A stretch of 64,000 bases of DNA from Moniliella sp. 'wahieum' (Eukaryota): assembly GCA_003971905.1 (NCBI GenBank), contig RSEE01000010.1, positions 186,001-250,000 of the forward strand, written 5' to 3'. The notes beneath the pieces are model-generated. The model was not told the DNA's origin. It worked only from the letters and a program-made list of their open reading frames with translations, and searched no databases. Below, one piece after another: positions 2,065 through 63,545 of the stretch. Each line of letters opens with the position of its first letter. The first letter of the stretch is position 1. The translations under genes were made by a program, and so were the position numbers.

Positions 2065-3988
2065 ACCAGAGACTGGTCCATTCCTTCCATTGGTAGCGTC
2101 GTTGGATGAGTGTACAAGTGTGTAGGGGACCCGCCACCTTTTTTGCATCGTGGAGCGTACGGGTATAGTAATCATCTTTCAATGAAATCCAACAGGCTTG
2201 ACTAACAGTGTAGAGCAGGTCACTTAAAAAGAAGATGAATAAGATTTGAGTAGACTAAGAAGGTGCAGGTGACTTAAGTGGACCGCACATCAAGCCAGTG
2301 AAAATCAGAATGTGCTACCATCAGACATGACCACAGGAGGCAAGCGCGTGCGGGGAGGAAAGGGACGTCAACACAATGTCGAGAATGCTATTAGAGGAAG
2401 TGGCCCGTTGGCGACGAAAATTCTTCTCTTTTCTATGGGACCGTGGGTGTGAGCCACATCACGGATGAGAGCTTCCAAAATAATTGCCTTCGCTGCCGTC
2501 ATCAACAGAGAACGTTGAATATCTCTATTCTATAAAGGAGACCCCCTTTTACCATGATAGATTACGATTATTGTAGGGGTTTCTCTCCACCAGTCTCTCT
2601 AGGGCGCCCTAACAATGGTTGAGTGCATGCCTATATAAAAACATCCTGAAAGGAAACTCTTCATTAAGTTCGTCTATCATGTGATGGGTGCTGGAACATC
2701 ACTGCGTCGATCTGTGCACTGATATATACATGATCCTAGCGTCAATGTTGACAACGATGATGGATGGGATCGCGATGACATATGATATGCATAGCGCATA
2801 GAAGGGAATGTAGACGGAGTCCCTCCTTCTACCGGTCGTTGCGACTGTTTATATGTGGATACTGATTATTACAGAGACGGTGGCTGCGGCTTGGTGCATG
2901 ACAACTACTTGCCATGGCGTGCTTTTGTGAACATTGAGATGGGATGTTCTGGAGTCCTGAGTCCTGTGTTATGGATTTTGGGCGATGTCGTCTCGCATAT
3001 GACACCAAATAAACCGCACAACCAACAATATTCAAAGAGAAGAGGAGAGATACAAAGATGAAAAAACGAAAGCCAACGCATATAACAACACATAACCTGT
3101 AATGTTTTGCGAGGGGGAGAGACAGAACCACCACAAAAGCAAACACAACTAACAGTGATTAACGATGACTGCGGGGGAATTAAGGAATCTGGTTCCGACG
3201 GATGCGCCAAGGCCATGTAGCTCGCCATGCTGTAACGGGATAGGCTTACTTCCGATTTCCCCTGATGCACCTGACGGTGGTACAAAAATGAACGGAGGTT
3301 GGGTTTTCAGTTATGGAAGAGTTGGCGTTCCACTGCCGAGGCTCTTGGCTTTTCAATGGTCAACGTTCAACTGTGTGTGTGTTTTTCTACGGCTAGTGCG
3401 TCCAGCTGTTAAACAGACAGCCGAGACAGACGGCCGAGACAGACGGCCGAGGTACATGGTCAGGGACACTGGGAGGCCGTTGGTTCGAGCCCACCATGGA
3501 AGGGTAACTTGAATACCTATTCTGGACGACCCTGCCAGCGCATTAGCGTGCTAGCCATCTTGTTCCCACAGTTGCTATAGTGAGTGACTAGTGACTGGCG
3601 CATTGCTGAGCCGCGCTGGCGCTGAAAGCTGAAAGCTGAAAACTGAAAACTGAAACGCCCAGTTGACTTGCACAGCTGCGGACGGTTCCCAGGGCGTACC
3701 CCCGGCGAGGGCTGTGTACCATACTTGGTCTCGATAATCGATCATCGGTAACCGGAAAGCGCTTGATCGATGATCAGCAGGAGAGGCGTGTAGCATGTGA
3801 CGCGCGTGACAGAGGAGGCGATGATGTCACGTGCATCATGACGCTGGTATCATACGCACCAGCGTCATGATGCATGATCTAGTTGCTCGAACTTGCACCT
3901 GGCTGGTTTGGGGGGGTGTTGTCGGCCCGCCCTTTCTCTTTCGTCTCACCACGAACTCCTCCCTAGTCGACTCTACTTTCTGGACGCC

Positions 3989-4565
3989 ATGTGCGACGAC
4001 ATCTTCTTCTGTATGTGGCACTTCTGCTCTCTGACCGCAGCTAACCCTTTCGCAAGGCATCCCCATTGTGTTTGGGTGCGATGAACACCTGAAACAGACC
4101 GACACCACTCCTCATGGTACGTCCCATTCACCGCCACCCATGTGTGGAACTAACTTCGCACTGTGCCTATCCTCCCCCCTTCCCCCCTCTCGTTTTCCCT
4201 TCTACAGTATGGTACGTTCTTCTAACCCATGTGCGGCCCGATGGTATTCGCCGTTTCTCCACTAACTCTGTCTCCCCTCTCAGTCCACGATGCCACAATG
4301 CTCAGGTCGTCTCCGCCCGGACACGGCGGTGGTTCACGCTCTGCTGGATTCCTCTGATTGTATGTATACTCATAGGATTGCGTGTCCTTCGTTCTAACTG
4401 CTTCACTAGCCTACGTCCTCGTCCAATATCTGGGTGTGTGGTATTTGCCAGTGGCGGGCCGACCAGAACGGGTCTTACCAGCCGCCGTTGGCCGGAGCCG
4501 GGGGGTACGGTGGCCCAGGCGGGCCGTATGGCGCCCCACAAGGGTACCCGCCACAGCAATACTGA
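3989..4565 (+). CDS. Small fungal zinc-ribbon protein (zinc_ribbon_15-like), 105 aa, 5 exons: 3989-4010, 4057-4116, 4208-4211, 4284-4359, 4410-4565
   Basis: Four introns with GTATGT/GTACGT donors, CTAAC branch sites and AG acceptors. The spliced 318-nt frame is open: MCDDIFFCIPIVFGCDEHLKQTDTTPHVCPRCHNAQVVSARTRRWFTLCWIPLIPTSSSNIWVCGICQWRADQNGSYQPPLAGAGGYGGPGGPYGAPQGYPPQQY*. It has two CxxC pairs around a WFxxxxIPxIP motif. Confidence 0.85.
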
Positions 4566-5081
4566 GAGGACCCACTGTTTCTTGCTTTCCAATGCCGATG
4601 TGTGCCAAGCTGTCAGCGCCGTGTGATCCTTTGCTTGTGGGGGACGGTGCTATGTGCACAGGATGCACACACCGCAACCAAGTTTCTTTGTACTGTGGAT
4701 GTATTTGCTGTTTCCCATCTCGTATTCCCTTGGCTGGCTGGTGGCTGCCCCTTGGCAGGGATTGAGCCGCAGCCTGCGATCTGCCAGTGTCTGCCCGCAC
4801 GCATGCCCTAGGTGGTGCGCACGTCGAGCGACATGGCGCAGGCCCCAACAGATGCGTCTAAGCGAGCAACAAAATAATGGCGAAAATAACAGAAAACCCA
4901 TATTGGATCGAGGCGGCAGGCGACAGCTGACATCAGCGCATCATCCATCATGCTCATGCACCGGCACGCATCCCACCCCGCCACCGACCACCTGCCCGGT
5001 GGGCGGCGCCTGACGCCCTCAGGCAGCTTATCACCACAACTCAAGCCCCCGCCACCACCACCCGCCACCACTGCCACACCC

Positions 5082-8289: not shown

Positions 8290-9544
8290 TGGTTCCCTAA
8301 ATGGGGTTGACGCTACCAAGCAACACGTGACACAACGCCGGATAAACAGGCTCAGCGCATTGAGCTCAGCCGCCCAACCAGAGTGCACAGTCTTCGGTTA
8401 GCCACAGACAAGGGAAGTATTCAATGCTAAGAGGGTACGTGAGATCGTGAGAGCTGTGGGAAGGAGCTGTTGAGAAGATGCAAGTTGTGAAGAACCTTTT
8501 TTCATCAACGGCAGTTGAGATCGATGAGAGAGAAGTCTGACATTATTGACATGTGGCCACATGTCTCGATGGCCAAGTGAGAGTGTCGTTCATTGTGTCC
8601 ACACACCCAAAAAGCTTCCAATGACTGACTATTGTGGTGGCTGGATGGCTCATCGACCCATCGGCATCTCCTCTAAGATCAAAAAAAGCATATTAGAACC
8701 ATCCATAAGATAGAGGAGCCATTCTTACTTAGCTCTCGTTCTGTTGTCCGCCTCTGTGGTCTTTAACCGCGCACAATCGCCATCTTGAATAAGGTATTCC
8801 CCTGGGCACATAGCTACATCGGAAGCCACATATCACGAAAAGCGCATATGCCCCCAAAAAGAACAGCCTCTTAGAGGCGTCATGCCCGCGGCATGCATGG
8901 AGACGCGATTGACGAGACATTGACGAACTTGTTGCGACGATGTCTGGCTTTACCGATCCTGGTGCACTTCCAGCCTGAGTGCGTGAGCCTCAGGCCTCAA
9001 GCTGAGGTCTCACTAGTCCCGAGGCACCGCAAGCTCCGAAGATTGCTGGTGCGCGCGTAGCGGCGTAAGCCAAAAGGACTTCTCCTGTAGCCCTCGTCCT
9101 GCTTCCTATAATACCACGAACGCTTATCTCTCGCCCGCGATCGGTCGCCTACGCTATACTCAGGTTCCAAACGCTTCAGTCTGAAGATCCTTTGCGGCCT
9201 CTATAGCCGGGTGGACCAGGACGTTCCTACAAACTACGTGGACGTTTGACGTTTGGTGGCTACGATTGACAATAAATCTTCGAACGTCTCGAAGGTTGGG
9301 TATGTTGAACATCGCGACAGCGCGTAGCGCGTAAAATCTTGAAGGCGGCATATCTGGCGTCAATTTCAAATAGCCGCCACATTGGTAACACGGCGACGAG
9401 GGAGCGCAGGGTTGGGTGCCGGTGGGGAGGGCGAGGCTTGGCGAGGCCTGCCGAGACCCAACAAAGGCCACCTGCCACATGCACGCGCACCATCCTCAGC
9501 ACTGTGTAACTACCTGATCGTTCTGATCCTTACCGCCTGAGCGT

Positions 9545-10370
9545 GAATTCAGTGTTCGACATTCAGCTTCAGAACGTTCAACGTTGAGTTCAAGGTTGAA
9601 ACGTTTAGCCCTATTAAACGTTCAACGTACTCAACGCTCTCGGCCTCAGTGCGGCAATGGAAAAGGGGGACTTGCCATGATGCATGACTTGCTTCCCAGA
9701 TCTCGGACCTCATATTCTCAGAGCTAAACTATTGTCAAGGGAGGAAGCGGTGGAGATGCAATCGGGGGAAGGCAGCCTGGACTGAGGCCTGAGGGGCAGA
9801 ACAGAGGTGGAATAACGGAGTCGCCTCGCGCAACAGTAGTTGTACATATTAGTCCAAGTAGTACTTACAGTACAGCGGATGCGATGTATGTGGCACCCGA
9901 ACCACCGGACCTGGGACACCCGCATCCGCACCCGACCCGCCCGTAATTTGCGGGTGAGGTTTCCAAATAAGATAGTCATGCCCACGATGAAGAGTGCGCG
10001 CGGGATAGCCAGTAAGGCCTAAGGTTACATCTGTTACATGTTCTACCGCGTACCTGTAACGCTTTTAACGCGTATTGCATAACGCGTAACGCGTAACGAG
10101 TAAAGCTAGTAACTAGTAACCATTTGACGATAATCGATAATCTCCGATGGGTCACACGTATCAATGGCATCTGATGGGGAAAAGGGGATCTTCCGAGCAT
10201 ATATATCTGTTGGAGTGTGGGCTTGTGTGACGCGTGACGCGTGACACATAGGTGACATGCGACCACCGATCACCCGTTAAATACTAACGTACCGACGTAA
10301 GGTGACCTGTGATGCATGTGATGGTCAGCCGCTGCGATAAACGCTACGCGGTAACCGGTAACCGGCGTCC
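9545..10370. repeat. Mosaic of 7-bp-period palindromic micro-repeats (ACGT, TGCA, GGCC, CATG, CGCG, CTAG, TCGA, CCGG cores)
   Basis: For example AACGTTCAACGTTGA 9573, TAACGCGTAACGCGTAACG 10080, GTGACGCGTGACGCGTGAC 10227, CGGTAACCGGTAACCGG 10349. Confidence 0.85.
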
Positions 10371-10492
10371 GTGTCCCCAGGCTCAGGCCAGGGCCGCAGG
10401 CTTCTCGCCATCCTCGCCCAACAATCGCACCGCAGCAGCTATGCATCGCAGGTATGTAATCACCCTTGCCGCGTCTCTTCAGCGGCTTGAAG

Positions 10493-11335
10493 TGTCCCGG
10501 GCTGCGGCGGACCCAAGATGGTCCGACCCAAGCTAAGGCCCGCCTGCTCCGCACATGCCAAGTAGAGCGTGCACCGCAGGCCAATCAAGTGTTGACGGTT
10601 GGCTAAATTAAGTACCGTGGCCCGAAGGGTCATGCTCCGTGCGACAATAGTCGCCCCCCGCCCAAGTCCAAGTCGGCCGGCCTAAATAAGGCCACCGAGC
10701 TTCCAGTGCCGTGGCGGCATCTGCCGTCCCGTCCCCGTTCCGCTTCCTTTCTCGGTCGCGCCTGTGGCGACCAACCCCGCTTTTGACATGTCTTCCTTTC
10801 TACACCCCCTCTTGTATCCGTTTCCCTTTTGATCCTGCCTGTACCCCTGGTTGATGGGGATCTTTTCCCCCACCTTCCATTCTCGTCATCCTCTCGTCTC
10901 CACTTTCGTCCCTTTCCCGCCTATCCTGTCCGACTCCTGCCCGTTTTCCAGCCAATTGATCCAGTACAGGCAGCTCCTCTTGTTAGCGTCCGACATCTCC
11001 TCCGACCTCGTCCTCCAGCCCTTCGTCGTCCAATCGCGCGAGCCCTCCTTCGGTTGCGGCGATTCCCAGTCTCAGTTGAGGCAGTGTTTGTCCCCCTCTG
11101 CCTCCTCCCGTCCCTAAGTCCCGGAGGCTTCAGACACGTTACTACGGCCCAAGCCGGTGCAGACGCAGCCTTGCCACACGTGCAGCCGCCCCACCAAGGC
11201 CTCTCCTCGTCCCTAGCTCCGCTCGGACCACCAACCAGCCTAATCCCGAAACTACCGTGAGTCGACCTACCGTCGCCTAAGGGATCGTACCCCGAAAAAC
11301 CCTAGGGCGGCCCTTGGCGGCGCCCGCCCGTGACA
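10493..11335 (+). mobile_element. Solo-LTR-like element, 843 bp, copy 1 (probably Ty3/Gypsy-derived)
   Basis: Ends TGTCCCGGGC...GCCCGTGACA; exact 5-bp target duplication TGAAG at 10488-10492 and 11336-11340; homologous along its length to the reverse complement of 24329-25193; no transposase or RT motifs. Confidence 0.85.
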
Positions 11336-13755
11336 TGAAGCTCTTGAAGGTTGAGCTTTTGAGCTGGTTGTTGACGTTGTTGAACTGAAAAGCTGGAAGG
11401 CGCCAAAGCTTTGAAGCTTGAAGCTTGGCTGGTGCCGCTGGTGGCCGACGTTGTTCGATCTAGAAGCTAGAAACGGAGAACTTTTGAGAAACAAGAACAG
11501 GGCAATAGTTTGTTACATTTTGACCAAATGAGAGCGCACCGCTTAATTCAATGTTTACCGTTACCGTTACCGGCTTTAAGTTTTAAGGCTTTGAGCTTAC
11601 CGGTTACCCGTCACGCGTCACACGTTATGCATCGTGTATTTGTCGCTTGTTAGATCTAGATGTTCTGCAATGTCGTGCACCATGGATGATCGATGGGCGA
11701 TGCATGATGATTAATCGGATGATTCAGGGTGCGTGCACGAGATGGGGGGACTGGAGTGAACGTGGACCAGATGAGAACGCTTTTTGATGTGTTTTGACAT
11801 TGACCTTGATACCACTCAAGGCCACAGGAAAGCCCAGCAATCGCCGGCTGACTGCTCACTATCGTCCAATAACAAGGAAGGCGATGCATCAGAGCATGAG
11901 AGAGCGACACCGTGCGTCGAGGCTTTTTTCTGCAAGTTTTGGTTGAGTTTTATATACCTAACCAAGGATGACAAGCATCATGAGGCGTATGATGAGAGAT
12001 TGATGAGAGAGGGGACTAGCTGCCAGTGTGGCGTATGGTACCTGGGGTGCACAGAATCGTAGCATTATATGGGGGGGCTGCTGTTAGTGGGGCGATGCAG
12101 CCTATATCATTTGAGTCAGCCCAAAAAGAGAGGTACCGAAAGGCGGGTGGAACACTGCTCACCCACACCAGTCGACACTAGCCCAGGCCCCAAGGCAGAA
12201 GCCCTTGTGCACCTACATTAGCAACAGAAGCATCAGAAGTATCAGAAGAGTCAGATCTCTAATTTCAGAAGATCTCTCGGAGACGCTCAGTACTCAGTGA
12301 GTCCGAAGCTCTGTACTCGGTATGAGTATACGTGGCCACCCGGTCAGTGTTGGGCAACACACTGCCACGCCATCTGCGCTGCATCGCACACACACACACG
12401 CGGGGTTAATAGAAAACGTATAGTGCGTTTTTCGTACGTTAAAACGTGCGTTCCTACGTTCGGTATAGTACACTCACTCACTGTGTTTCTGGTTTCTCGC
12501 TCCTAGGTTGCTAGTTACGCGTTACGCGTTACGCGTTGCGGAAGATGGGGAGTAGTGCGTTACGCGTTACGTGTTACATGTTGCTAGCTAAGCGCTAAGC
12601 GCTAACTCCTACATCTTCCCGCCTGCATCATGCATCATGCATCATGCATCATGCATCCTATTGGATCACCAATGATCGATGCTATCGATTTGATGCAAAC
12701 GTGCAAACCCAGTGCACTGCCCTCTGCGGGCGGCTTGCGACATGGTGGCAAGAGGACGTGAGGCCATGTAACGGAGTTACTAGCTCGTGACTAGTGACTA
12801 GTGACTAGTGCTTGTGACAGTGGCGCGTGACGTGTGATGCGTGACGGGGAGACAGACAGTGTAGGCTATCCGATGCATGATGTGTGCATGTGAGCATGAT
12901 GCATGATGGCGTTGTGTGCTGCGTGTTGCTGGTGTTGCTGCGTGTTGGCCGACTGTGTGCGGCGAGACCCTGTAGGGGCGTGGGGATCCCTGGGGACCGG
13001 GGCGCAGCGTGATTGATGATTGATGGCCGGTGCGGCCGGTGATGGGCCGATGATGGGACGGTGATGAAGCGGTGATGGTTTATCGATTATCGAAAGGATG
13101 CTTGGCCTAGGGCCTAGCGGGGCGATAGTCGATAGCCCCATCTGACCATCTAGTCATCTCGTCATCTCGTCATCTAGCCATCTAGCCATCTAGTCATCAG
13201 TCATCCAGTTACTAGTCATCTCGTCCCAGGCGCGATGCGGCGTGCTGCTGAAAGCCCTTGCGCTTCGAGCGCCGAAATCTCACCGGCTGCAACTGCGGCG
13301 ATGGGTGGGGAGTGGGGTTTTCAGGCCCTCCCCAGTCAGCGCACCAGCGCGGGGCGGGCGCGGGCCCTGAGCCAGAAGCCTGTTATAAAAATTGCCAACC
13401 ATCGTCCCTCGACAAGGGTGGTGTGCGAGCATCTGGGCCCAGGCCCCAGGCGCAGGTCTCGGATCCCGTCGCACCTCACCACTCTCTCAGGATGAGCACT
13501 TTGTAGCAACCGTGCGGCGCCAGGCTGCTTCCAGTTGCTGGTGGCCAGTGACCGGGACCGGTGACCGCACGGTACCGCCTAACCGCCTTACCGCGCGCCC
13601 AGGCCTTAAGCGCTAATCCTTAGGCTTACCGGTCTACCGCGCCCGGTTGCGTTACATGTTCCCGGGCATCGGTTACCGGATACGGGTTACGTGGTACGGC
13701 AACGACGAGTCGAGTGATCATCGATCAGCCGATCAGCCGATCATCGATCACCACA
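11336..13755. repeat. Large intergenic field of 7-bp-period palindromic micro-repeats
   Basis: TGAAGCTTGAAGCTT 11412; (GTTACGC)3 12514; (GCTAAGC)2+ 12587; (TGCATCA)4+ 12624-12657; (GTGACTA)3 12787; GATCATCGATCA near 13716 and 13739. Confidence 0.85.
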
Positions 13756-22605: not shown

Positions 22606-24328
22606 CCAAGAACGAAACGAACTGTGAACACCAACTAGGGGCCACGGCTGTTTAAGAATTATAATCCGTCGCACACTTCTCCTTCAGCTTCAGCAGCTGC
22701 GAGTGTTGTAAAAGAGTATAAAACGCCCTAGTCAGGAGCGTTCCATCAACAGGCGCGACGGCCCCAGTTTTAGATGGGGCCGTGGGCATCATGTCCTTTT
22801 GTGGTTGGCGTGGAGCAGGATAGGTGCAGCTGGTGGAGCCCGTAACCCCTGATATTCCATTGTAACCCCTTTGCCGCGGGAACTCAAGGTTATGCAAGGC
22901 TGGTATGCCCGGTTCAGATCGTACTTAGTGTGAAACTCCTCTGATCGTAAACGCACATGCGAATAGTGTTATGGGCAGGCCCCGGCGGCGGACTGGAGCC
23001 CGACCCATAACTTGGGAGCGCTTTCCTTTGGAGGAGGACAGGCCATTCACAGTTAAATTGATCGAGCCTGAACACTGCTAGCAGATCCGAACGGCGCTAA
23101 AGACGAGCTCTTAGTGGCACTGGCATATGATACCTCTCAATCGGGACGTAGGTTCGCATATGGCAAAAGGCTGCCAATATTAAGTACCGGAACAAGCAGG
23201 ACCAGCGTGCCTGTAGTCTGTTGTCCTGAAGGGTTGGCCAGAGGTTGACGCACAAAGATAGGGTAGGACAGGTCCTGTCTGACGGAACAACTCAACTATA
23301 GGCTTGTAGGATCCCGCAAGATCACAAAGGTAGGAGACTGAGAGCTGGAGATCGACGGCAATGGATGCCCGGTCAAAAGGATACTGAAAGTCAAAAGGTG
23401 GTCCCTGGAAGCAGGTCTGAGGGACTTTTGGCGAACGAAAAGGAACAGGGGAGTTGCCTGATGATCGATGATCATCAACTAACGATGGATTAACAAAGGA
23501 TATTGTACAAGGACAAAAGACGAAGAAAGGAAAAGACGAAATGTCATAGTTTGGCTGATCTCCTCGCTCCATGTCTAATTTCTTCGTCCCGAGCGTCTCT
23601 CGCACCTTCTCTGCTCTTCCGCTTTGCACCATGTCCTCTGCTCTTACTTTTTCCCCACGGACGATTGCTACATCCCTTGGCCTAATCCCGACTCTACTGG
23701 TCTCCCTCATTGCCTTATCCCCGATTGTGACACACGAAATGTAGTGAACGAAGGCGACGAAGTAGAAAAGGAAAAAACGAAATGACCCGCTACGGGGAAA
23801 TGCACATGGGCCAAGACGATCACAAGGGTCATATATCATGTATCATACAGGCAGGATCTATTAGGGATAGACAACGCACGAAGAAAAGGGAAACGAATCG
23901 AGATCAGTGCCACCCCGAAAGTAACACAGACCAAGTATAGAAAAAGGTTCCCCCACTCAGCCAGGAACGAGAGCCTCAATAAAATCAGAAATGTCCAATG
24001 TAAAGGGCAGGCTCTCCGCCCTGAGCTAGAAACGTAGAATGAATGAGGGGAGAATCTCACAACGAAAACGAAACGCTCAGATCAGGAAACTGGTGTCTTA
24101 CTTAGAGCTCATTTGCGCTCAAAACCAAAGACGAAAAATAATATTGAAGTAGGATAAAACCAGGGACTCAAAACGCTCACGATGCACGGATCACCTCAAT
24201 CATCTCAGCCGCACAAAAGGGACTTTTGATCATTGATTCTAGTTAATAGATTGATGGAAACATAAATGCTCCATTTGGATATAATGGAGTGCATGGGTTT
24301 TTTAACGTGGGTTCAGACAAACCATCTT

Positions 24329-25759: not shown

Positions 25760-27416
25760 TGTATTTGATGCAGTTCTAACAAAATGATGGTAGGTGGGAG
25801 ACGCCTCCAAAAGCACAGGGAAATGAAACACTGAAGAAACAATGGGCACATCATCATATGTAGACTCGCAAATGGATGAGTGACCGCCGCATCGTGGTGG
25901 AAGCCCACTGCACTCTTAGGACGTGCTGGTGATGAGGCTGCACACACTGGCGTGAAGACTGTCATCGGAGAGAGAGGAGAGGTTGGCCGCCCACTCAGTA
26001 ACTGAGCGTTTTTGATGGTTGTGAGAAGTTCAGGCACGTTCAGATATGATGTTGCAACCGGCGAGAGATGCACGATGGTTAACGCTGAAGAGGTTTAGCG
26101 TTTAACGTACGTTTAACACTTATTAACGTTTAGGCCTTAGGACGTTATGAGAGGGGCTTGTCGAGCGCACATGAAAACCTTGAACAAAGACCGAGGTTAA
26201 GAACATATTGAACGAACGCGTGTATGTACATTGAATTGAGACTCATACTCAATCTTCGATGGTGGAACACAAAACGCGGCCTCTGTAAGCTGTATCGGTT
26301 ATCCACTTCCAGCTACTGAATATTGATTGAAACATCATGTCGAAGCAAAGAGAAGGGAATGATTAATGAAGGGGAAAAGGGAGAAAAGTGAGAAGGTAGA
26401 AATGACATCTTGTGAGAGCAACACAGGATGCATATGGGCGCGTGGCTTGGCCATATGGCGTATCATATCACATGCAATCACACAGCACTAACCACTAGTC
26501 GGTCACAGTCACATGTCACACTCACTAGGCAACGGCAGCATTGTTTAATTTAAGGTGGCCTGAGGCCCTCAGAGCCATGGGAGTGGGCCGCTAGCCTGAG
26601 CGCCCACGCATATCATGCGCCATGCTGAGGCTACTGAGGCACCCCGTGCGAACATCGAGTGCACCGAGCCGAACGTGCAGACTGGTGCCGGCGGGATAGA
26701 GACATGCGAGACCCTGCGACACCTCATACTGAAACTGCGGGAGAATTTTGTCACAGGTCACCGGTCACTGATCGATGATGGATGGTCATCGTTCACCTGC
26801 CTATCACAAGATCACACGAACCACGCCGCGTCGAATTTAAGCTTTAAGCTTTACGCGTTACGCCTGCATAAGCTTTGTTTAAATGTCCGCTGTCACATAC
26901 ATCGCAATGTGACATGCAGGATGCATGGCAAGGAGGGGCAGTATAGATGTAGCCTCAGGCCGCAGGCAGCGCCTGGCCACCGCTGCTCAGTATGTCTCAG
27001 AACTCAGTTCCAGATCACTTTGCCTGGTTTGCAATGCTGTGGTCTTTACATGCATTACACGTGACGCATTACTGTCGCCTTTCGTGACAAGCCTGCCAGT
27101 ATTCCTACGAGATCTGATATCTCTGGGATCTGAGCAGTGATAATACACACAGGGAAAAGTGCTAGGGGTGCAATCATTAATCATGACTGCATGACGGAAG
27201 CAGGCGATGAATATTGAATGTTTTGGCCTCACAACGTGGGGGGGAAAGCACCTCGAGAGGGGGCGCAAAGCCTGATGCACAAGTCCTTTGTAATGATCCT
27301 GGTTCCCCAGCCATGTCCTTGGTGCAGTTGCGCAACAGTAGTGAAGGGAAAACAGGAGCTGGGTTGAACGTTGAACCTTGAAACGTTGAACATTGACGTT
27401 AAACCCACTGACTGAG

Positions 27417-27603
27417 GAAGAGAAGAAGAAGAAGAAGAAGAAGAACGAAGAAGAAGAAAAAAGAAGAAGAAGCGAAGAAGAAGAAGAAGAAGAAGAGAAG
27501 AAGAAACGAAGAGAAGAATGAAAGAAGAAGAAGAAGAAGAAGAAGAAGAAGAAGATAAGAGAAGACGAAGAGAAGAAGAAAGAAGAAGAAAAGAAGAAGA
27601 AGA
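27417..27603. repeat. Imperfect (GAA)n polypurine microsatellite, ~190 bp
   Basis: Near-continuous GAA units with a few interruptions. Confidence 0.95.
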
Positions 27604-29181: not shown

Positions 29182-29341
29182 TGTTGACATCCGTCCTAGG
29201 ACCGCGCGGACCCTGAGTCACGTGAGTCAGCTTTCATTCCTTCCGAGCTCGCACCAGTCTTCTGGACGAGTCAGTCGCAGAAGCTTCTTAGTCCAATACG
29301 ACGTTCAGTGCTCACATTCTGTGGTAGTAGCGAGGCCGACA
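29182..29341 (+). repeat. 5' LTR (160 bp)
   Basis: TGTTGACATCC...GAGGCCGACA; identical by eye to 34081-34240. Confidence 0.97.
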
Positions 29342-34245: not shown

Positions 34246-34815
34246 GATTAAGTTCAAGCTGTTGCGTTCAAGCTCCACACGAGGTTCACGTTTGAAGAGC
34301 TTCAAGACTGTTCAAACTCAGAGCTTCAGCGCTTCAAGCTGTCTTCAGTTGTACTCAGTACTCCGTATAGGCTTCAGCGCCTCAGCCTCAGCAGCCTGGC
34401 AACACGTGAGGCGTGACGGGTGGATATGGCGCGTGAATATGAATCTTGAAGGCAGCACATTGTCCTGGCGTGGGAGGGGGGACGTGCGACTTGTGCGGCG
34501 GGTGCGGCTTGACAGCCTCTGGAGGGTCCCAGCCTGCCCCAGCGAGTGAGGCAGACTCTGGTAGACTGTAGACCAGGGTAGAATAGGGTAGACTGTAGGA
34601 GGGTGTGTGTGATGCGGATGTACGTCGTCTCGGCCAACAAGGGGGATCATTGCGATCATCGATCTTCGAGTGCGACCAGCGGTCAGCACGTCAGTTCGGA
34701 CCCCCGATCAGTGATCATCGATCATCGATCACTAGTCACTCTGGTCACTTGTCACTAGTCACTAGTCACTGTGCGGACTTCTCCGATCTGAGATCCAAGG
34801 GCCTGAGAGGCTGAG
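34246..34815. repeat. Palindromic micro-repeat mosaic (AGCT, GTAC, TCGA, CTAG, GATC, GGCC cores)
   Basis: TTCAAGCT repeats 34253-34340; GTACTCAGTACTC 34351; TGATCATCGATCATCGATCACTAGTCA 34712; GTCACTAGTCACTAGTCAC 34751. Confidence 0.85.
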
Positions 34816-48289: not shown

Positions 48290-48905
48290 CATCGTCATCG
48301 ATCATCGGCGTCTTTCAACGTTCAACGTATCTGAGATCTGATGAGTCTCAGATCCTCCGTACTGTTGCCGGACACGGGCATGACATGCATGACATGCACT
48401 GCTGCGCCAATGTCCCTGCGGGCCACGCCAGCGCACTAGCCACGCTCAGATCAGAGGCTATTATTGCCCTGGCTTGCGACGTGCGCCAGTGCGGGAGAAG
48501 CAGAGACCCCCCAGCGGCTGGTAGAATCAGCGTCAGCGCTGCGCAGACGACCGGCATGGTCCCGGCCATGTGCATGTCACATGTCACATGTCCAGCAGTC
48601 GGGCGTATAAGCACTAAGCGTTTCAAAAATGGAGCCACTAAGGATCATCAATCACCGATCAGATCTCAGATCATCGATCAATCAAACCGACGGACTGTCC
48701 AGGTCCCTTAGCTGATTTTCAGAGCATGGGGGCACTCTGTTGCGTGCCAGGTCTGGTCCCATTCGTGGATGCTCCGATTTCAGAGACGACATCGCGGTGT
48801 CACTTGTCACTTCTGCCTCGGTGCCGGACGGCGCCTTGAGCGCTGGGCGCCGCTTGAGCGCTGCTTGCGCCTTCAACTGGAAGGTCAAGCTTGAGCTTGA
48901 GCCAT
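48290..48905. repeat. Palindromic micro-repeat mosaic upstream of ADH
   Basis: TCATCGATCA, TCAACGTTCAACGT, TGAGATCTGA, ATGTCACATGTCACATGT, TCAGATCTCAGATCATCGATCA, TTGAGCGCT x2, TCAAGCTTGAGCTTGA. Confidence 0.8.
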
Positions 48906-50775: not shown

Positions 50776-52498
50776 ACTCGCTCACCCCCTATACGAAAAC
50801 CTATGTTTTCCAATACCCCCCTTCTCGTATTATCAATGAAAATGATGTCGTGCTTCCTCACACAATGTAATGTAGTCCCGGAGTTTGCAAAAGGCTTTTA
50901 CTGGTTGGGGGACGCTTCCACAATGAATGAAGTAGTTGAAGGCTCTTTCTCAGCTGTCAAGAACATACAGATCGATAGGCAATACCCGCCGGCAGCAGTG
51001 TTTATATATGGAGGGCGATTTGCAGCTGGAAGAACATTTTTCCGAATTATCAGGAAACAGAGAGCAGGGCTGCCAGGATAGAGCACTTGCCCCCGCTTCT
51101 GTCATACTGTGCTGGAAGGAGAGAACCGTCTTCAAAAGGGAGAGGTAGATTACACCACAGTTTCGCGACATATATGTTGCTTCGGTAGACCGAGAGACCA
51201 ATCAGGAAAAAGACTGAAAACCCCTCGAGAGACTTTAATTGTTACATTGCGCAATCTTTTTGTTGTATGAGAAACATCTCAACTTTCTCGAGAGAGAGAA
51301 GAGAAAGAACCTACTTGGCTAGATGTGGGAATTTTACCAGTTGACATTATAGTGAGAGAGGAAACGCGGTGAGGAGTATCTCTCGCTGTGGTGTTATAGA
51401 TCTTAGAGGTGGTTTTCATGCACACTGCGGTCGACTACCGCATATACTAATCCACTCGCGCTGATTCTGATGGAGACGAATGATTAATGGGGCGGTGGGC
51501 GAACTGGAGCAAACGCCAGATGAGCGCCTGTGGACCAGGCCGGTGGACAAGCGTTTTCCTCTCTGTCCCTCTGTGTTGAGAGGGTTTACGCGGTTTACGA
51601 CCGGCATCGAGCGGATTTTAACATTTCATCACTCCCTGGTCGGAAGACGTGCTCATAACGTATGCTGCTCTGCAGAACACGCGAAGGAGACGGCGGCGGC
51701 AGCGAAAGCGCTAAAGAAAGCTAGTCCCTACTGACTAGCGACTAGTGAAGCTTGAAGCTTGAAGGTAGTAAACGCGTGAACCAAGTCACTAGACATCATG
51801 CATCATGCATCACTGGTCAGTTGAACACGTAGCATCCGTTCAACGTTCAACTGAACGTTCAGTAACATCGCAATGCAACTTTCCCAGGCTCCTCTGCCCA
51901 GGCGCCCCGGCACGCCACCACTCCTGACATGCATGATGCATGCATGACATGGCGACGACGATTAACGAAAACGATTAACGATGGCGCATCTGACGCACGT
52001 GACGAAACCGATACGAGGGCTCGACGTGCTCGCTACATAATTGGATGTGGCACGGGGGCACTGTCTGCTCTACCGGTGCAAATTAGACCGAGACAGTGAG
52101 AATACCGTGTGGCTGGATGTCGCGTGCCCCCAAGAGAACTTCACCATTTGGGGGTGGCCTTGGAAGCCCCACAAGACAAGCGGGAGAGCTCCCGAGCCCT
52201 CAGATCCGCATAGGTATACGAGGTATACGTTCAATACGTTCAGCGAGCACGGCATCTTGGCATCCGGTAGTTGACACGCCACGATAGTACTACCAGACCA
52301 TTATCTGTTTGAAAGAAGGTTAGCCTCACGCTGTTACCAAACTCATCGAGCAGCGGTGCTGATAAGGAGTTCTTCCCAAGCACTGGACATCCCTTTTATA
52401 TAGTAGCCCCCTTATTTCGCCATTCAAATCCCACGTTGGACCGTTGAACATCTCTCACCTTTTGCATCGCCACCACCAAGACTTGTATTACCCACAAC

Positions 52499-53425: not shown

Positions 53426-54757
53426 AAAGCATCCTTTCTTGATACCCTAGACCCACTCTGTAGGCTGATCGCCGGGGGTATTTTCAGGAAACGTCGTTCT
53501 CAGATTCTCAGATCTGAGCCTCAGATCTCCGATTTCACCTGTCACCGCTTGGGTATATTCGTTGCGGGCACAGTCGATCACTAATCCTTGCTCTCTCTCC
53601 CTGCGTCCCACCCTCCGAGTATCCTCAGTATTACTGAGCTCAGTGGATACTGTGACTACTACGTGACCGGGTGACCTCACTAAGTACTCTATTCCCTTAA
53701 GCATGTGGTCGGGCAGCTGTCCCATGTCCTCCCGCAAGCCCAGAGTTGGGGTGGTTTGCAATCACTATTCAATGTGCACGCGTACATACCACCGCGTTCG
53801 AAATTGCCTCTTTCAGTTGCAGGCGAAAATGGCAGCCGGTACATCCACACAGAGGAATCCTGGATTTCGGGTTTCGTTTTCTGTTGTCTTTTCTCCCCCA
53901 ATAACTCACTAGCCACTAGTTCCGCTAGGAGCTCTACTACGATGGCCTTGGGTGTGGTTGTCTACTTGCGACGGCGTCCAACCGGTCTAGATGGGCACAC
54001 GTGTGTCCGTGTGGATCGAGGGTGTCACAGAGAGTGCGAGCCCAGGTACTCTGCTGCCCAGAACTTGCACCGATGATCGATCGAGATGATTGATGAGCGC
54101 CAAGTCACGTGGGCTGTGACATGCAGACGTGTGTGACCATGTGACATGTGACAGAAAACGGCGGTCAGGAGATGGTGTGTGCCAGTGCCTGCAGCATCCG
54201 GCGTGGCAGTCACCGGTCACCTCTATTACATTCGCATGTGCCAAGTGCCGGCGAACGCAGGCGGGCACTGCGCAGCAGTCAGGCTGACTATGCTGCATTC
54301 GCCGCACTAACCGGTAACCCTTGCATCCCGCATGTGGATCATGCATGGCAGATCACAGCTCACCGGCCATCCCGCATCGGCATGCTGCATGCCGCCCGCC
54401 ACCTGCGGCAGCCTCCCAGCGGGCGGGCTGGCACGCCTCGCGCAGTGGCAGTGTGGGACACACACTGCCCGCGCACTGGGTGGTCGGAGTTGGTACGTAC
54501 CACTTGCCCCCTGCGTCGCCCTGCTGCAGGCTGCGGCTGGCCTTGGCTGCTGGGCCCTCGCAGGCTAGGCCTAGCTCAGCTCAGCGACTCCGGGTTGCGT
54601 CCTCCCGTGCGCGTTCAACGTTCAACGTTCAGGGGGCCCAGCCGCCGCTCCACCAGCACCACCACCGCCGCCTCAGACGCCGCCGCGGCCACCCCCACCC
54701 CCACCCCCACCGTCTCTGCTGCGCCGGCACTGGACCGCGCCGCGTCCTGGCTGTGTC

Positions 54758-57700: not shown

Positions 57701-60036
57701 TGCGTTTGCTCAAATCACAGCCGCTGCGACCGATGGCGACTTTTCTCGGTTTGTCACGGTGGAAGCGTCAGGAGAGATGGACTCGCTCAAGACCAAAATC
57801 AACCAGATGGTGTTCAGTCTGCGCGACTCGATTCAGAAGAATACCGCGGCAAGGGAAGCGGCCGAGCTGGCGAATCGGTCCAAGTCGGAGTTCTTGGCCA
57901 ACATGTCCCATGAAATTCGGACTCCCATGAACGGCATTATTGGCATGACAGCCTTGACCCTCGAAACGGATCTGACGCGCAACCAGAAGGAGAACTTATT
58001 GACGGTCTCGAGCCTGGCAGGGAATCTGTTGGCGATTATCGACGACATTTTGGATATTTCCAAGATTGAGGCCGGCCGGATGACTGTTGAGGAGATCCCA
58101 TTCTCTCTCCGTGGCATTGTGTTTACCATTCTCAAGACGCTTTCCGTGCGGGCGACGCAAAAGAAGTTGAATCTGTTGTATGAAGTGGCGCGCAACTGTC
58201 CCGATGCATTGATTGGAGATGCTCTGCGGCTGAAACAGATCATCACCAACCTCATTGGCAATGCGGTCAAGTTTACCGAAGCAGGCGGCCACGTCTCGCT
58301 GAAATGTCGGTTGGCAGAGATGATTAGCGAGGACGAGTGCAAGCTCGAATTTTGTGCTTCGGATTCGGGCATTGGGATCAAGCCCGAAAAACTCGACTTG
58401 ATCTTTGATACGTTTTGCCAGGCCGATGGCTCCACAACACGCAAGTATGGTGGCACAGGCTTGGGGCTTAGCATTTCCCGCCGACTTGTGAATCTGATGG
58501 GGGGTGACCTTTGGGTCGAATCCGAGTACGGTAAGGGCTCCAACTTCTACTTTACTATGGTCGTCAAGCTCGACCACCGTCTTCGCGATCCGCAGATCCT
58601 GGCTCAGAAAGTCAAGCCTTATCGCGGCCGTCACATTTTCTTCCTCGATACGCTCCACGACCCAACGGGGGTGGAAAAGATGCTGGTTGACCTGGGCTTC
58701 AAGCCGATCACGTGTCATTCGGTAGAAGAAGCGCGTGCGATGACCTTCTCTTCCGACCAGGCCGGGTCCAGACGACGAATTGGCGTGGGCGCAGGGGCCA
58801 GTGTAGGAACGATGCCGTCGGATTCGTTGCAGAGCACTGGTCCTTCCCAGAACCAGAACTACTTTTCCTACGACTCGGAGTACGATCCGCGCTACTCGTC
58901 CGGCTACGATCCTCGCTACTCGTCCGGTTTCGGTCGGTACTCTTCTGGCTACGGCTGGTCGGGGGGGTACGATATATCGGAATACGGCGCGGGAGCTCCA
59001 CCTGCGCCTGCGGTGCCCCCTGCGTCAGGAACTGAGGTGGGGAGCTTGCCCGGTACGCCTGTGGCTGCGGACTGCTCTGTTTCTACCGTCGCCAAACGAT
59101 CTACAGACGGGAACAAAAAGAAGACAGATGCGCTGCCGCGGATCGACGTGATCCTCATCGATTCCATTGCGGCGGTGGAAGAACTGAGGACAGTGGAACA
59201 TCTTCGGTACATTCCACTCAACCTACTCACTCCCCAGGTAGAGACGCTGAACATGACCTACTGCCTGGACCAAGGTATCGCTTCCTGTTCCACCACGCCG
59301 ATGGAGCCGGGCGACCTGTTCCTCACGCTCCTTCCCTCCTTGGAGTCCTCAACCATTGCGCCTGTTGAGGGGGGCTCAGAGACGTCGTACGACATTCTGC
59401 TGGCAGAGGACAATGTGGTGAACCAGAAGCTTGCTTGCAAGATCCTCCAAAACCAAGGGCATCAGATTGATGTGGTGTCGAACGGTGCGGAGGGCGGTGG
59501 CGGCGCGGCAGGGCGCTAAACAGTTTGATGTGATCCTGATGGATGTTTCGATGCCTGTCATGGGCGGCATCGACGCGACGACGGCAATCCGGGCATGGGA
59601 GGCGGAAACAAAGCAACCTCCCGTTCCAATTGTGGCTCTGACGGCACATGCGATGTTGGGTGATAAAGGTGCGTACTCCCATCCATCCATCCATCCATCC
59701 ATCCAAGATGATCGATGACTGGCCGTGTTTGTCAGTCTCAATGGCGTACGAGTGGGAACTGACCTTGGCTTGTGGGCAGAAAAATGTTTGGAGGCTGGGA
59801 TGAACGCGTACGTGTCCAAGCCCATCCGGAAACGCGAGTTGGGCGCAACGCTTCATTCTCTTTTGGCAGGCAAGAAGGCTGCTGCAGCAGCAGCGGCGCG
59901 GGGGATTACGGCCGGGGTCGGCCCGGCCGGGTCGGTATCAGCAACCCTGTCCAAGGCACTCAACTCGACGGCAGTGTCTGAAGCGGTCGCAATGGCGGCG
60001 ACGACGGCATTGTCGTCCAACCCATCTGCGCTATAA
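54758..60036 (+). CDS. NIK1: Group III hybrid histidine kinase (Nik1/Os-1/Tco1 type); introns 56006-56065 and 59669-59779; two apparent frameshifts (~57620, ~59490)
   Basis: Six full ~92-aa HAMP repeats (VARGDL..EVGTEG.LGG..W..L...VN.MA.NLT.QVR) plus a truncated seventh; H-box [17 protein letters not shown]1, F and G2 boxes ([28 protein letters not shown]); receiver AEDN...LMDVSMP...LTAHA...SKP. Confidence 0.95.
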
Positions 60037-61304
60037 GGTGCAGGAGTCCAAGATGGAGAGGGGGTTGAACGTTGACCGTTGACCGTTGATGGCATTTGTT
60101 TGTTTGCTGGTGTTTTGTGCGCTTGTTGTACTGCTCTTGTGCTTGCTCGCTTCTTGCTGTGGCATGTGACATGTGACATGGGATCTGGGGCCCGGAGGCC
60201 CCACCGGTTTGGTTTGGTATCTGCCCGCCCACACTGTCTGTCCAGACCCTGATGGGGCCGCGCCCGCGTGGGCCCCCCTCTGGACTTGGCCTCTCCTCAA
60301 CCGCATCTGCCCCGACCGCAGTGGGGAGGCTATGTACTATGTACTTGTACCCCTGCTCCCGCTCCCGCAAGGCGGGGTGGCGGCATGTCTATCGTGCCTT
60401 GCTGGTTACCGGTTCTGACGCACTCTGTCGATGGGCCCCTGGGACGTTTTGTTGCGACGCACCTGGTCGTATATGAAGATGATGACCGTGTATAATGGAG
60501 TTCTACCAGGGCTGGCTGGCTTTTGCCTTTGCCTGGGCGTGGGTGTGGGTGGTATAGATGGGAGACGGTGCAGAAGCACTGGTAGTTGTTTTGCTGTGCG
60601 TTCTGTGTATCGCCAAGTCGCTTGTCGATTGGGCCTTCGCAGATGGGCGATGCGGGGATGTCACGTGCACGGGCGGGACCCGGCACTCGCTTTCACCCGT
60701 TCCGTCCGCACTGCGGCTGCCCCCGGCCTGGGCCTCGGCGGCGCCCGGGACTGGGCAGCCGGGCCGGGGCCAGCCGGGGCGTGGCGCATGCATGCAGCAT
60801 GCAGCATGGGGCGCAAGGGAGCGCACAACGCATGCATGCACTCTGCAGGGGGCAGCGTCGCGCTCCGCCCAGCCGCCGGGCGCACGCAGGGACACGGGCG
60901 CCATGCCCGCGTGGCAGATGCACGAACGCATGTCGTCCGCCTGGGCCCGGTTGTGAGCGCAGAGTGGGCTCGTGCGGGGAAGACAGCCCCCGTCCGCCAC
61001 GCCCGGCTGGGGGCTGGGGCAGCGCGGGGCCAGCGCGGGGGCAGTGTGCGCCTGCCCGGGGCGGCTCCGTGCGTCCGGTCCGTGCGCCTGGGCGCTGCCC
61101 GCTTGCGCCGCCCTGCCCCCGCCTGCTTGCCGCACGGCGCTGCCCTCGGCTGGCGCGCTGCCACGCTCCCACACCGCCCCCCAGCCCAGTCAAAACCCCC
61201 GCTCTGCCCTGGCTTCGTTCGTCTTCCGCTCTCGTCTTCTCCCCCACCACCACCACCCCCCCGACTCCCACTTCCACTTCCACCCCCCCCCCACCACCAC
61301 AGCC

Positions 61305-62378
61305 ATGGGCATCCTCGATATTGTTCCCGCCGGTGTCGTCCAGGGCAAGGACGTGTACAAGGTGCTTGACTATGCGCGTGAGCACCACTTTGCCATTCCT
61401 GCGTTCAACGTCACCTCTTCCAGCACCGCCGTCGCTGTCCTCGAGGCCGCCCGCGACTCCAAGGCGCCCGTCATGATCCAAGTGTCCAACGGTGGCGCTG
61501 CCTACTGGGCCGGCAAGGGCGTGGACAACAAGCAGCAGAAGGCTTCGATTGAGGGGGCGGTGGCGGCGGCCCACTTTGTGCGCCAGATTGCGCCGCTGTA
61601 CGGCGTGCCGGTGATTATGCACTCGGACCACTGTGCCAAGAAGCTGCTGCCGTGGTTTGACGGTATGCTCGAGGCGGACAAGGCCTACTTCAAGCAGAAC
61701 GGCATCCCGCTCTTTTCGTCGCACATGCTCGACTTGTCGGAGGAGTCGAAGGAGGAGAACATCCAGACGTGCAAAAAGTACCTCAAGGAGATGGCCCCGC
61801 TCGGCATTTGGCTTGAGATGGAGTTTGGCATCACGGGTGGCGAGGAGGATGGTGTGAACAATGAGGGCGCTGCCAAGGAGAAGCTCTTTACCGCCCCCGA
61901 GGACATTTGGGACATTTACCGTGAATTCTCGGAGATCACGCCCAACTTTTCCATTGCCGCTGCGTTTGGTAACTGCCACGGCTCGTACCAGGTGGGCAGC
62001 GTTGTGCTCCGCCCTGACATTTTGCGTGACCACCAAGAGTACGTCAAGAAGCAAACGGGCTCTACCAAGGAGAACCCTGTCTTCCTTGTCTTCCACGGCG
62101 GCTCGGGCTCCACCAAGGAGGAGATCCACACGGCCGTCAAAATGGAGTGGTCAAGATGAACGTGGACACGGACACGCAGTATGCGTACCTCGAAGGCATC
62201 CGCGACTATGTGAACAAGAAGAAGGACTACCTTTCGCAGCAGGTTGGCAACCCCGAGGGGCCCGACAAGCCCAACAAGAAGTACTATGACCCGCGTGTGG
62301 GTGCGCGAGGGTGAGAAGACCATGTCGAAGCGTGTGACTGAGGCGTTCGAGGACCTTGGTACGGTCAACCAGCTCTAA
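61305..62378 (+). CDS. FBA1: Fructose-1,6-bisphosphate aldolase class II, intronless; two apparent small deletions (~62140, ~62297)
   Basis: FAIPAFNVTSSST, HSDHCAKKLLPWFDGML, SSHMLDLSEE, EMEFGITGGEEDGV, FGNCHG, VFHGGSGS, KMNVDTDTQYAY, NKKYYDPR. Confidence 0.96.
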
Positions 62379-63545
62379 GGTGCGATTCATTGGCAATGGC
62401 CTGTGACATGTGACATGTGACACATGACATGTGATCGTGCCGTGGGTCGTCTTGCCCGTGTTACCAAGGCCCCCTAGCTCAATGCATGCATCTCTCAATT
62501 GTCCTTTGTTGCTCAACTCACCCCCTGGACGGGAACGTCATCTTCGACGTTTAAATAGGCCATAGGGCAACCCTTGCTGGTTGAGCGGGCCCACTGGCCA
62601 GTCAAAACTCACTCAGAACACAGAACTTCAGGGGCCGCGGCTTGCGCTTTAAGCTTAACCGGTAACCGGTAACCATTGACCAGCTTGACCGGCCGTTGAA
62701 ATACATGTAGGGCCTATACGCTTAGGACGGGAACGCCTCGCCCTTAAACTCTTAAATTGCTTGCACTTCCCCTCTGCACGGAACGGAACGCATGAACGTC
62801 CTGAACGCACGGCACGAGCGCCGCCGATGGTGTGTGCTTCCATGCGGATATCAGGGTTGATCATTGATCAGGAGTTGGGTTGTTACATGTTACAAGCTGA
62901 GACCCGAGGCTCGGGCCCGAAGACACGAGTTGTTTCGATGAGCCCTCTCCGCAACCGCTTGCGTGTAATGTGTAACGTGTACGGGACACAAAACGTATCT
63001 CAGATCTCAAGTCTACAGCGGGCGATGCTCGATGCAGTCTTTGGCAAATCAAAACGTATCCTGGCAGTGGCACGACGAGAGGGAAGATCGGTGATCCGTG
63101 ATCCGTGATCCGTGATCAATGATCAGTGATCGATAATGAGATCCTGCTTAGGCAGAGAGGAGGGCAACGACAAAAAGACAGAGACAACAAGAGCACAAAG
63201 CCACCACACAGCACACACCACACAGCAAGGGATGGTCTGCCAACGACCGAGGGCAGGGTGCGCCACGACTGGTAAGAGGTTGGAACGTGTCAGGGCGAGG
63301 GCGAGCGATAAGGAAGACAGAGCAGGTATCAGATCGCAGATCGCAGGGGGCACACAGGACCGGCACTTCTGGCACGACGACGCACGACGCACGACGCACG
63401 ACGCGGACGCGGGACGAGGCAAGGTACGCAAGGTACCGAGACCAAGCAAGATAACTGGTACCTGGTGCCCGGTACCTGGTAACTGGTAAGGTAAGGCGCA
63501 AGGCGGGATGGCAGGGCAAGACGCAAGACGCACGCAGCCAATCGA

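Follow-up and report, generated by a model that had tools for sequence, protein, structure and literature searches.

The intergenic DNA of the basidiomycete Moniliella sp. 'wahieum' raises a question about its origin in a 64-kb stretch of contig RSEE01000010.1 (assembly GCA_003971905.1, positions 186,001 to 250,000 of the forward strand), which is referred to here as the window and which is the scope of all window counts given below. Gene boundaries in this window repeatedly carry tandem heptamers that share a rule rather than a sequence, each unit consisting of a T-N-A trinucleotide followed by a 4-bp palindrome, and it has to be asked what kind of process writes a fixed symmetry around a free core. 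An earlier reading of the sequence, referred to here as the original prediction, offered three candidates, namely (a) scars of hairpin-type repair, (b) repair of staggered cuts with 4-nt self-complementary ends, and (c) selected sites for a dimeric factor reading TNA-N4-TNA, and it regarded simple slippage as insufficient. Of this interpretation, the insufficiency of slippage stands and hairpin scars fit best, while sites for a dimeric factor are not supported.

The observation itself is real and strong. As the tracts show, one very specific sequence change recurs in non-coding DNA, by which a target xy-TNA-qr is lengthened by exactly 7 bp to xyTNA-y'x'-xyTNA-qr or, in mirror form, to xy-TNAqr-r'q'-TNAqr (primes denote complementary bases); in other words, nnTNAnn is duplicated, and at the junction the 2 nt of one copy give way to the inverted complement of the 2 nt that adjoin them in the other. 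The period of 7, the two dyad axes, and a 4-bp palindrome whose sequence is free all follow automatically from such an event. The heptamers are tentatively read, with a probability of about 0.4, as scars of hairpin-type cut-and-paste (transposon-type) excision accompanied by a 7-bp target duplication. An undescribed enzyme-driven mutational process in this lineage, based on a domesticated or hyperactive hairpin-forming transposase or on a hitherto unknown T-N-A nuclease, is also possible, though rather unlikely.

Reality and location of the period-7 signal

Coding DNA was masked by means of stop-to-stop open reading frames (ORFs) of at least 150 aa, a crude mask rather than a set of gene models, which leaves 23,667 bp of unmasked (non-ORF) DNA. 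Over the whole window, base identity at lag 7 amounts to 0.2765, compared with 0.2649, 0.2691, and 0.2643 at lags 4, 5, and 8, respectively. The lag-7 peak, which had been proposed as a check on the rule, is concentrated in non-ORF DNA (0.296 against a background of ~0.262), and ORF-covered DNA is without it, displaying 3-base coding periodicity alone. Dozens of period-7 arrays in the window are reported by Tandem Repeats Finder, and perfect tracts of at least two copies number 88, 62, 59, and 10 at periods 5, 6, 7, and 8, respectively.

Symmetry is found at period 7. The rule of T-N-A plus a 4-bp palindrome fits 33 of the 59 perfect period-7 tracts, where composition predicts 2.2%, and reverse-complement symmetry is present in 36 of them against an expectation of 10.7%, with T and A placed around the centre in 33 of these 36. 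Perfect tracts of periods 4, 5, 6, and 8 in the window show symmetry at expectation, with no excess. When TNA-N4-TNA 10-mers are counted, those with a palindromic N4 (TNA-pal4-TNA) occur 105 times, compared with 8.4, 8.0, and 18.9 expected under order-1, order-3, and order-5 Markov models, and those with a non-palindromic N4 are mildly raised (161 against 144, 114, and 103); this comparison, likewise suggested beforehand, is decisive for the rule. Fifteen cores are in use among the 10-mers of the window, comprising all 12 G/C-containing palindromic tetramers and TTAA, both as originally described, together with ATAT and TATA, while AATT is not among them.

These 10-mers form 85 chains, of which 69, 12, and 4 contain one, two, and three 10-mers, respectively; the longest perfect array measures 34 nt, and copies stand head to tail in variable number, as is typical of microsatellites. 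Their density is 3.4 per kb in non-ORF DNA and 0.62 per kb in ORF-covered DNA, where several of the ORFs look spurious, and their count is zero within a copia-type retroelement (29182-34245), in agreement with the earlier impression that the units lie outside coding sequences and the retroelement. Among the sites listed at that time, those at ~9578 and 53508 need correction, as N is complementary rather than equal there; the GTAC example at ~34351 is only partial, its second spacer being TCC, and a clean GTAC unit is found at 12287. The range once given for the grammar, 3579 to 63130, leaves out one further array at 207-225.

For comparison, 80 loci surrounding the Trl1 genes of other fungi, 637,482 bp in total, served as a control set. 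In these loci, 10-mers carrying the same N in both T-N-A trinucleotides (same-N 10-mers) comprise 34 palindromic and 469 non-palindromic cases, which corresponds to 6.8% where chance gives 6.25%, and to 0.053 per kb; the window holds 91 palindromic and 86 non-palindromic cases, at 1.42 per kb. Since the 80 other fungal loci lie at chance, the grammar is lineage-specific and no by-product of counting. The highest palindromic share in the control set, 7 of 36 same-N 10-mers, belongs to a metagenome locus (L035, GC 0.40), and this enrichment was judged not significant after testing 80 loci.

Anatomy of the elementary unit

The T-N-A trinucleotides that flank a core are direct repeats, with the same N in 91 of the 105 10-mers and a complementary N in 7. 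Same-N TNA-palindrome-TNA arrangements are enriched at spacer 4 alone, where 91 are observed and 1.85 expected; the remaining spacers considered in the window, namely 2 (18 against 9.2), 6 (1 against 0.7), 8 (2 against 0.2), and 10, are not enriched. Same-N TNA pairs in non-ORF DNA peak at two spacers only, 4 (125 pairs) and 11 (65 pairs).

The origin of the core can be followed in two sets of 12-mers, both collected on both strands. In 12-mers of the form ab-cde-b'a'-ab-cde (n=170), the centre c.e is T.A in 111 cases, A.T in none, C.G in 3, and G.C in 2; the T.A centre is obligatory, and as hairpin stability would favour G/C, stability is not the selector. In 12-mers of the form xyTNA-??-xyTNA (n=157), the spacer is the reverse complement of xy in 111 cases, the reverse complement of NA in 4, and another sequence in 42, which shows the core to be copied, in inverted form, from the 2 nt next to one T-N-A. 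The elementary product is the asymmetric 12-mer xyTNA-y'x'-xyTNA, which occupies 111 positions (both strands), grouped in 72 same-N chains, against ~0.4 expected by chance on both strands according to arithmetic from base composition. The two dyad axes per unit that had been described earlier follow automatically from this product; the direct repetition of T-N-A, the asymmetric 12-mer, the arrays of 5+7n nt, and the obligatory T.A go beyond the original prediction.

Tract edges are one-sided as well. Periodic flank extension around the 56 single 10-mers is (2,0) in 9, (0,2) in 7, and (1,1) in none, and when all tracts that obey the rule are taken together, 13 have (0,2) edges, 12 have (2,0) edges, and 1 has (1,1) edges. 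Tract lengths peak at 12-13 and 19-20 nt, that is, at 5+7n, and a whole xyTNA or TNAqr stands at both ends in 7 of 8 rule-obeying 19-mers. In simulations on random sequence, the replacement rule produces tracts whose commonest length is 12-13 nt and among which (2,0) and (0,2) flanks prevail, a pattern that resembles the data; when plain 7-bp duplication is simulated, the commonest length is 14 nt and (2,2) flanks prevail, unlike the data. Isolated odd palindromes xyTNAy'x' are not enriched, with 139 outside tracts and 185 simulated for the whole sequence, which implies that a single step creates both the palindrome and the duplication. A model in which targets that are already palindromic undergo plain 7-bp duplication was rejected, as it predicts the 14-nt mode with (2,2) flanks and also an enrichment of isolated palindromes, which is not seen.

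A change of core within a chain takes place at a shared T-N-A with N kept, and the new core consists of 2 nt of the unique flank plus their inverted complement; the core switch at a shared T-N-A had been recognised before and is seen at 34715-34738, 26123-26139, and 26837-26860. Non-palindromic cores retain an intact outer pair with a broken inner pair in 34 cases and show the reverse in 13, and many of them are one transition away from a CpG-centred core, so that they look like decayed palindromes. In the run at 12557-12605, successive cores first differ by transitions of the CpG type, after which the core is switched. The series CGCG, CGTG, CATG (12557-12582), together with the non-palindromic cores, suggests that CpG transitions are the main decay route, and this decay of units may hint at cytosine methylation or CpG hypermutability in the fungus. 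The 72 reconstructed targets have a purine at -2 in 48, a pyrimidine at +2 in 48, and C or G as N in 53; T and A alone are fixed and the remaining positions are free, leaving no shared consensus of the kind that characterises REP-like elements.

With this anatomy at hand, three ordinary explanations can be weighed. If the heptamers were ordinary microsatellites, chance proto-repeats would have been expanded by slippage, with self-complementary units favoured via slipped-strand hairpins. Arrays of 3 to 5 units do occur, non-canonical period-8 and period-11 arrays on mutated units lie alongside, and some arrays are longer than random re-hits would make them, with slippage probably contributing to their growth. 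Slippage, however, cannot create the seeds, given ~0.4 chance 12-mers against 111 positions, which confirms the earlier contention that it cannot explain a fixed symmetry with a free core. It also leaves unaccounted for the T.A-only centre (C.G 3, G.C 2, A.T 0), the one-sided flank match, the lack of fully palindromic repeats with period 6 or 8, and the absence of the grammar from the 637 kb of control loci; and instead of the unconstrained units that chance seeds would supply, 33 of 59 tracts obey one rule. Ordinary microsatellites are thus a very unlikely explanation, and slippage as the origin of the units is largely refuted.

Selection provides another possible source of regularity, as the arrays could be cis-elements for a dimeric protein reading T-N-A once per 7 bp, with cores that are maybe known boxes such as ACGCGT. 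The intergenic location, the nearly invariant T-N-A amid variable positions, and the weak symmetric R..Y preference are all compatible with this proposal. A reader of T-N-A, however, needs neither a palindromic nor a flank-copied core, and a dimeric factor on TNA-N4-TNA, the candidate (c) introduced above, predicts neither the palindrome nor the one-sided flank match; moreover, the core is free, with 15 different ones in use, the units decay like neutral DNA, and they also occupy a likely 3'-3' gap at 62375-63150. Selected sites therefore appear highly improbable. An assembly or base-calling artefact can be considered almost negligible, since errors do not make a flank-templated, T.A-specific, exactly 7-bp grammar that avoids ORFs.

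Proposed excision mechanism and related systems

In the excision mechanism favoured here, a symmetric dimeric enzyme would recognise T-N-A with a weak R-T-S-A-Y preference and cleave both strands with a stagger of 7 bp, in the way DDE transposases act on target DNA; the symmetric preference for a purine at -2 and a pyrimidine at +2 is what a dimeric enzyme would give. The ends would become covalently closed, even-tipped hairpins, as flanking donor DNA does with hAT, MULE, Transib, and RAG elements, and these hairpins would be opened at least 2 nt off the tip, generating 4-nt self-complementary overhangs. One overhang would then be retained and the other lost, with 2 nt of one copy being replaced by P nucleotides of the other, a combination that gives both observed products exactly and keeps the period at 7. 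Opening at 3 nt would lead to the same sequence as opening at 2 nt, because T and A are symmetric, and opening at 4 nt would create the rare complementary-N class; TCTCAGATCTGA, the 10-mer at 53508 preceded by its left flank TC, exactly matches the 4-nt-opening product.

Each event makes a second TNA target, so that arrays can grow by re-hits, and slippage on the 5-nt repeat may also lengthen them. An event at the edge of an array copies the unique flank, which results in core switching at a shared T-N-A with N unchanged. Units would subsequently decay by point mutation, apparently fastest at a central CpG, and the sparing of coding DNA would follow from the frameshift that 7 added bp cause there.

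The most economical source of such events would be the excision of a cut-and-paste element with a 7-bp target duplication, and hairpin opening off the tip (P nucleotides) is, to our knowledge, the only established chemistry that writes short inverted flank copies. Both copies of the target duplication are kept as direct repeats (same N in 91/105, xyTNA repeated), as in excision footprints, and the palindromic insertion is flank-templated in the manner of P nucleotides (reverse complement of xy in 111/157, one-sided flank match). Hairpin-type scars, the candidate (a), would accordingly be the best fit among the original proposals, judging from this P-nucleotide-like spacer. The 4-nt self-complementary ends of candidate (b) find a place as an intermediate of (a), but they fail on their own, as their fill-in gives a period of 4.

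Known hairpin reactions resemble the grammar in part. Cutting by hAT, Transib, MULE, and RAG enzymes leaves hairpins on the flanking DNA, and the one made by Muta1 comprises 43+43 nt from both strands, i.e., it has an even tip (PMC5499845); in a fungus, P-nucleotide footprints are left after Ac/Ds excision, with 28 different footprints in 128 excisions (PMC5873905). As far as these sources describe them, the footprints of Ac/Ds, Muta1, and Transib and the P nucleotides of V(D)J coding joints share with the window a retained direct-repeat duplication, a short flank-templated palindromic insertion, and nucleotide loss on the other side. Unlike flank-hairpin footprints, the units of the window are near-invariant, always with period 7 and a full 4-bp palindrome, and they reach an enormous density with no element seen there; unlike hAT footprints, which are centred on a single complemented base, their palindrome is even.

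A 7-bp stagger is also known from several element groups. Two basidiomycete elements have 7-bp target-site duplications, namely hAT7 of Pucciniales rusts and Kyakuja of Laccaria (PMC12730594), and Galileo makes a 7-bp target-site duplication with the odd-palindromic consensus GTANTAC (PMC4168063). The window resembles hAT7, Kyakuja, and Galileo/1360 (P superfamily) in this stagger, and two of these groups occur in Basidiomycota; hAT7 and Kyakuja are likened to it by duplication length, and heptamer arrays are not reported for any of the three. The Galileo target is likewise an odd palindrome centred on N, but its centre is A-N-T, whereas that of the window is T-N-A.

Symmetric targets with T-N-A at the centre are familiar from other systems, as IS5 and PIF-Harbinger elements duplicate a 3-bp TNA or TWA target and the Tn10 hotspot is GCTNAGC. 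The targets of the window are similar in this respect. A PIF/Harbinger footprint, however, consists of the 3-bp duplication plus end remnants and would produce few cores, derived from the element termini and independent of the flank, whereas the window has 15 cores that match the flank from which they are copied. Hairpin-prone microsatellites, REP-like elements, and Fusarium mitochondrial palindromes (PMC7218506) are, like the heptamers, short, intergenic, capable of fold-back, and variable in copy number, but the REP-like and Fusarium families are defined by sequence, and the window by a rule with a free core, a T.A centre, and flank templating. Full-text literature searches, whose coverage excludes figures and some supplements, returned no description of the heptamer rule of T-N-A plus a 4-bp palindrome, and a Tilletia genome paper contains no text on simple repeats.

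Several observations weigh against excision scars. In its working the grammar resembles P-nucleotide footprints made at a 7-bp target with symmetry, but the spectrum typical of footprints, with its variety of deletions and P lengths, is missing, and spacer 4 alone is enriched. Products with one P nucleotide are not enriched in the window (13 against ~17 expected), periods 6 and 8 are at background there, products with both overhangs kept (TNA-pal4-pal4-TNA) number only 4, and the products as a whole are far more uniform than known footprints (28 types for Ac/Ds). The constant keeping of one overhang and loss of the other is unexplained by excision, and as many nucleotides are always gained on one side as are lost on the opposite one, which hints at a coupled reaction. 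A total of 85 chains in 64 kb is an extreme density for excision scars, and at this density the event would rank among the main sources of indels in the genome. The hairpin tip of hAT elements is odd, as in Hermes, and would not yield an even palindrome. Tracts of 19 nt are observed at 0.11, compared with 0.03 simulated under random re-hits; long arrays thus exceed the prediction, indicating that slippage or local hot spots also act. As for the element itself, a scan of the window found no convincing inverted termini with 7-bp, 8-bp, or TNA duplications, and Pfam searches detected no transposase domain in 55 ORFs of at least 150 aa, nor in 59 ORFs from poorly annotated regions that were chosen among the 192 with a length of 90-149 aa; the sole mobile-element domains in the window are those of the copia-type retroelement.

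The same templated 7-bp insertion might instead arise without a transposon, through an endogenous T-N-A nuclease, a domesticated transposase, or template switching by a polymerase or during end joining, acting at breaks in open intergenic chromatin, in which case the heptamers would be a lineage-specific mutational signature of the host machinery. This route agrees with the lack of a transposon or transposase in the window, with the very high density across many intergenic regions, and with the lineage specificity of the signal, and the uniform products with their exact length compensation suggest one coupled reaction rather than independent processing of ends. On the other hand, paper derivations from a 3-nt TNA stagger, from a 5-bp duplication, and from intra- or interstrand template switching fail at the second step, the sole derivation that yields the product needs transposase-type hairpin ends, and we know of no enzyme with such behaviour. 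It is for the uniformity, the density, the absent element, and the unexplained one-sidedness that excision scars are held at no more than the probability given above, with the transposon-independent route retained as possible yet rather unlikely.

Other routes were rejected on the sequences that they would produce. A 3-bp TNA duplication with flank hairpins yields TN' beside TNA, a 5-bp duplication with P nucleotides requires an unexplained one-sidedness (the spacer is the reverse complement of NA in 4/157), odd-tip hAT hairpins yield odd junction palindromes, fill-in of 4-nt cuts does not reach period 7, and fold-back or interstrand template switching offers no means to re-prime the second xyTNA.

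If the excision reading is true, a large part of the intergenic DNA of this fungus would have been written by one precise break-and-repair reaction whose rules are readable from the genome, and the genome of a basidiomycete would thereby document, in nature, how hairpins are opened and ends joined. The reaction would further represent a mechanism that creates microsatellites de novo, beyond their mere expansion, and a source of fast-evolving variation next to genes with potential as strain markers. A concrete question raised is that of the enzyme that would cut at T-N-A with a 7-bp stagger. Should an undescribed process be responsible, it would place exact 7-bp palindrome-cored insertions throughout intergenic DNA, seed a microsatellite class of its own, and reshape promoters and terminators genome-wide.

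Arrays, units, and genes along the window

Table 1. Heptamer arrays and units in the window, listed by position; the entries carry no strand assignment.
Position	Unit or array	Length (nt)	Remarks
207..225	TGA+GATC array	19	5+7x2
3583..3596	TGA+CTAG	14	
8975..13755	Richest block		Two non-ORF stretches with 13 and 18 TNA-pal4-TNA 10-mers (4.9 and 7.6 per kb)
10080..10098	TAA+CGCG array	19	
10106..10120	TAA+CTAG	15	
10128..10142	TAA+TCGA	15	
10227..10245	TGA+CGCG array	19	Sole symmetric-frame 19-mer
10349..10365	TAA+CCGG	17	
11411..11427	TGA+AGCT	17	
12514..12537	TTA+CGCG array	24	
12557..12605	TTA-CGCG-TTA-CGTG-TTA-CATG-TTG-CTAG, then TAA-GCGC x2		Phased
12624..12657	TCA+TGCA array	34	Longest perfect array
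12787..12846	TGA+CTAG x3		Followed by degenerate GTGAC-phased heptamers
12894..12908	TGA+TGCA	15	
13080..13093	TTA+TCGA	14	
23460..23473	TGA+TCGA	14	
26123..26139	TTA-ACGT-TTA-GGCC-TTA		Core switch at shared TTA; flank GG agrees with new core
26836..26860	TTA+AGCT x2, then TTA-CGCG-TTA		Flank CG agrees with new core
27363..27376	TGA+ACGT	14	
34713..34770	TCA+TCGA x2, changing to TCA-CTAG at shared TCA, then TCA+CTAG x2		
48314..48328	TCA+ACGT	15	
48573..48592	TCA+CATG	20	
48659..48680	TCA+GATC, then TCA-TCGA-TCA		
51746..51764	TGA+AGCT array	19	
51794..51812	TCA+TGCA array	19	
51837..51861	TCA+ACGT, then TGA-ACGT-TCA		N complementary in the latter
51929..51942	TGA+TGCA	14	
53508..53517	TCAGATCTGA		Complementary N; with TC on its left, agrees with the variant having 4 inverted nucleotides
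54138..54153	TGA+CATG	16	
54612..54631	TCA+ACGT array	20	
60163..60180	TGA+CATG	18	
62402..62434	TGA+CATG array		One unit mutated
62649..62674	TTA-AGCT-TAA, then TAA+CCGG x2		
62881..62894	TTA+CATG	14	

Besides the arrays in Table 1, period-11 and period-8 arrays are built around TGA or TCA at 13034-13078, 13147-13225, and 13722-13743 (GGCCGGTGATG, CATCTAGT, and CGATCAGC). Each of these arrays looks as if a heptamer unit had gained 1-4 bases and had then been amplified, which suggests that slippage acts in addition to the primary event. A patch at 29080-29150 is rich in odd palindromes of the types CC-TNA-GG and GC-TNA-GC (CCTCAGG, CCTAAGG) and shows no clean period of 7 bp; it may represent an array of some age that has become scrambled. 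An impure GAA/AAG microsatellite of ~65 triplets (27417-27603) adjoins heptamer units.

The copia-type long terminal repeat (LTR) retroelement at 29120-34549, identified by the domains RVT_2, rve, and Pol_BBD, is embedded in a heptamer-rich intergenic region. Its LTRs (29182-29346 and 34081-34245) are 165 nt in length and 99% identical, which points to a young insertion.

Gene content was assigned from Pfam domains and includes the fungal tRNA ligase Trl1 (19987-22328), a Nik1-type HAMP hybrid histidine kinase (54575-59519), ribosomal proteins S8 and S17e, a class-II aldolase, and a copper-fist factor. The best named matches of a Trl1 fragment belong to Ustilaginomycotina (Meira, Exobasidium, Malassezia, and Violaceomyces) at 37-48% identity, and the best unnamed match reaches 65%, which places the window near Ustilaginomycotina only loosely. 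The Nik1-type kinase spans two overlapping ORFs in different frames (54575-57913 and 57570-59519), which could reflect an intron, a frameshift, or an assembly error, and two tandem Sec14-like (CRAL/TRIO) paralogues lie on the minus strand at 40966-44904.

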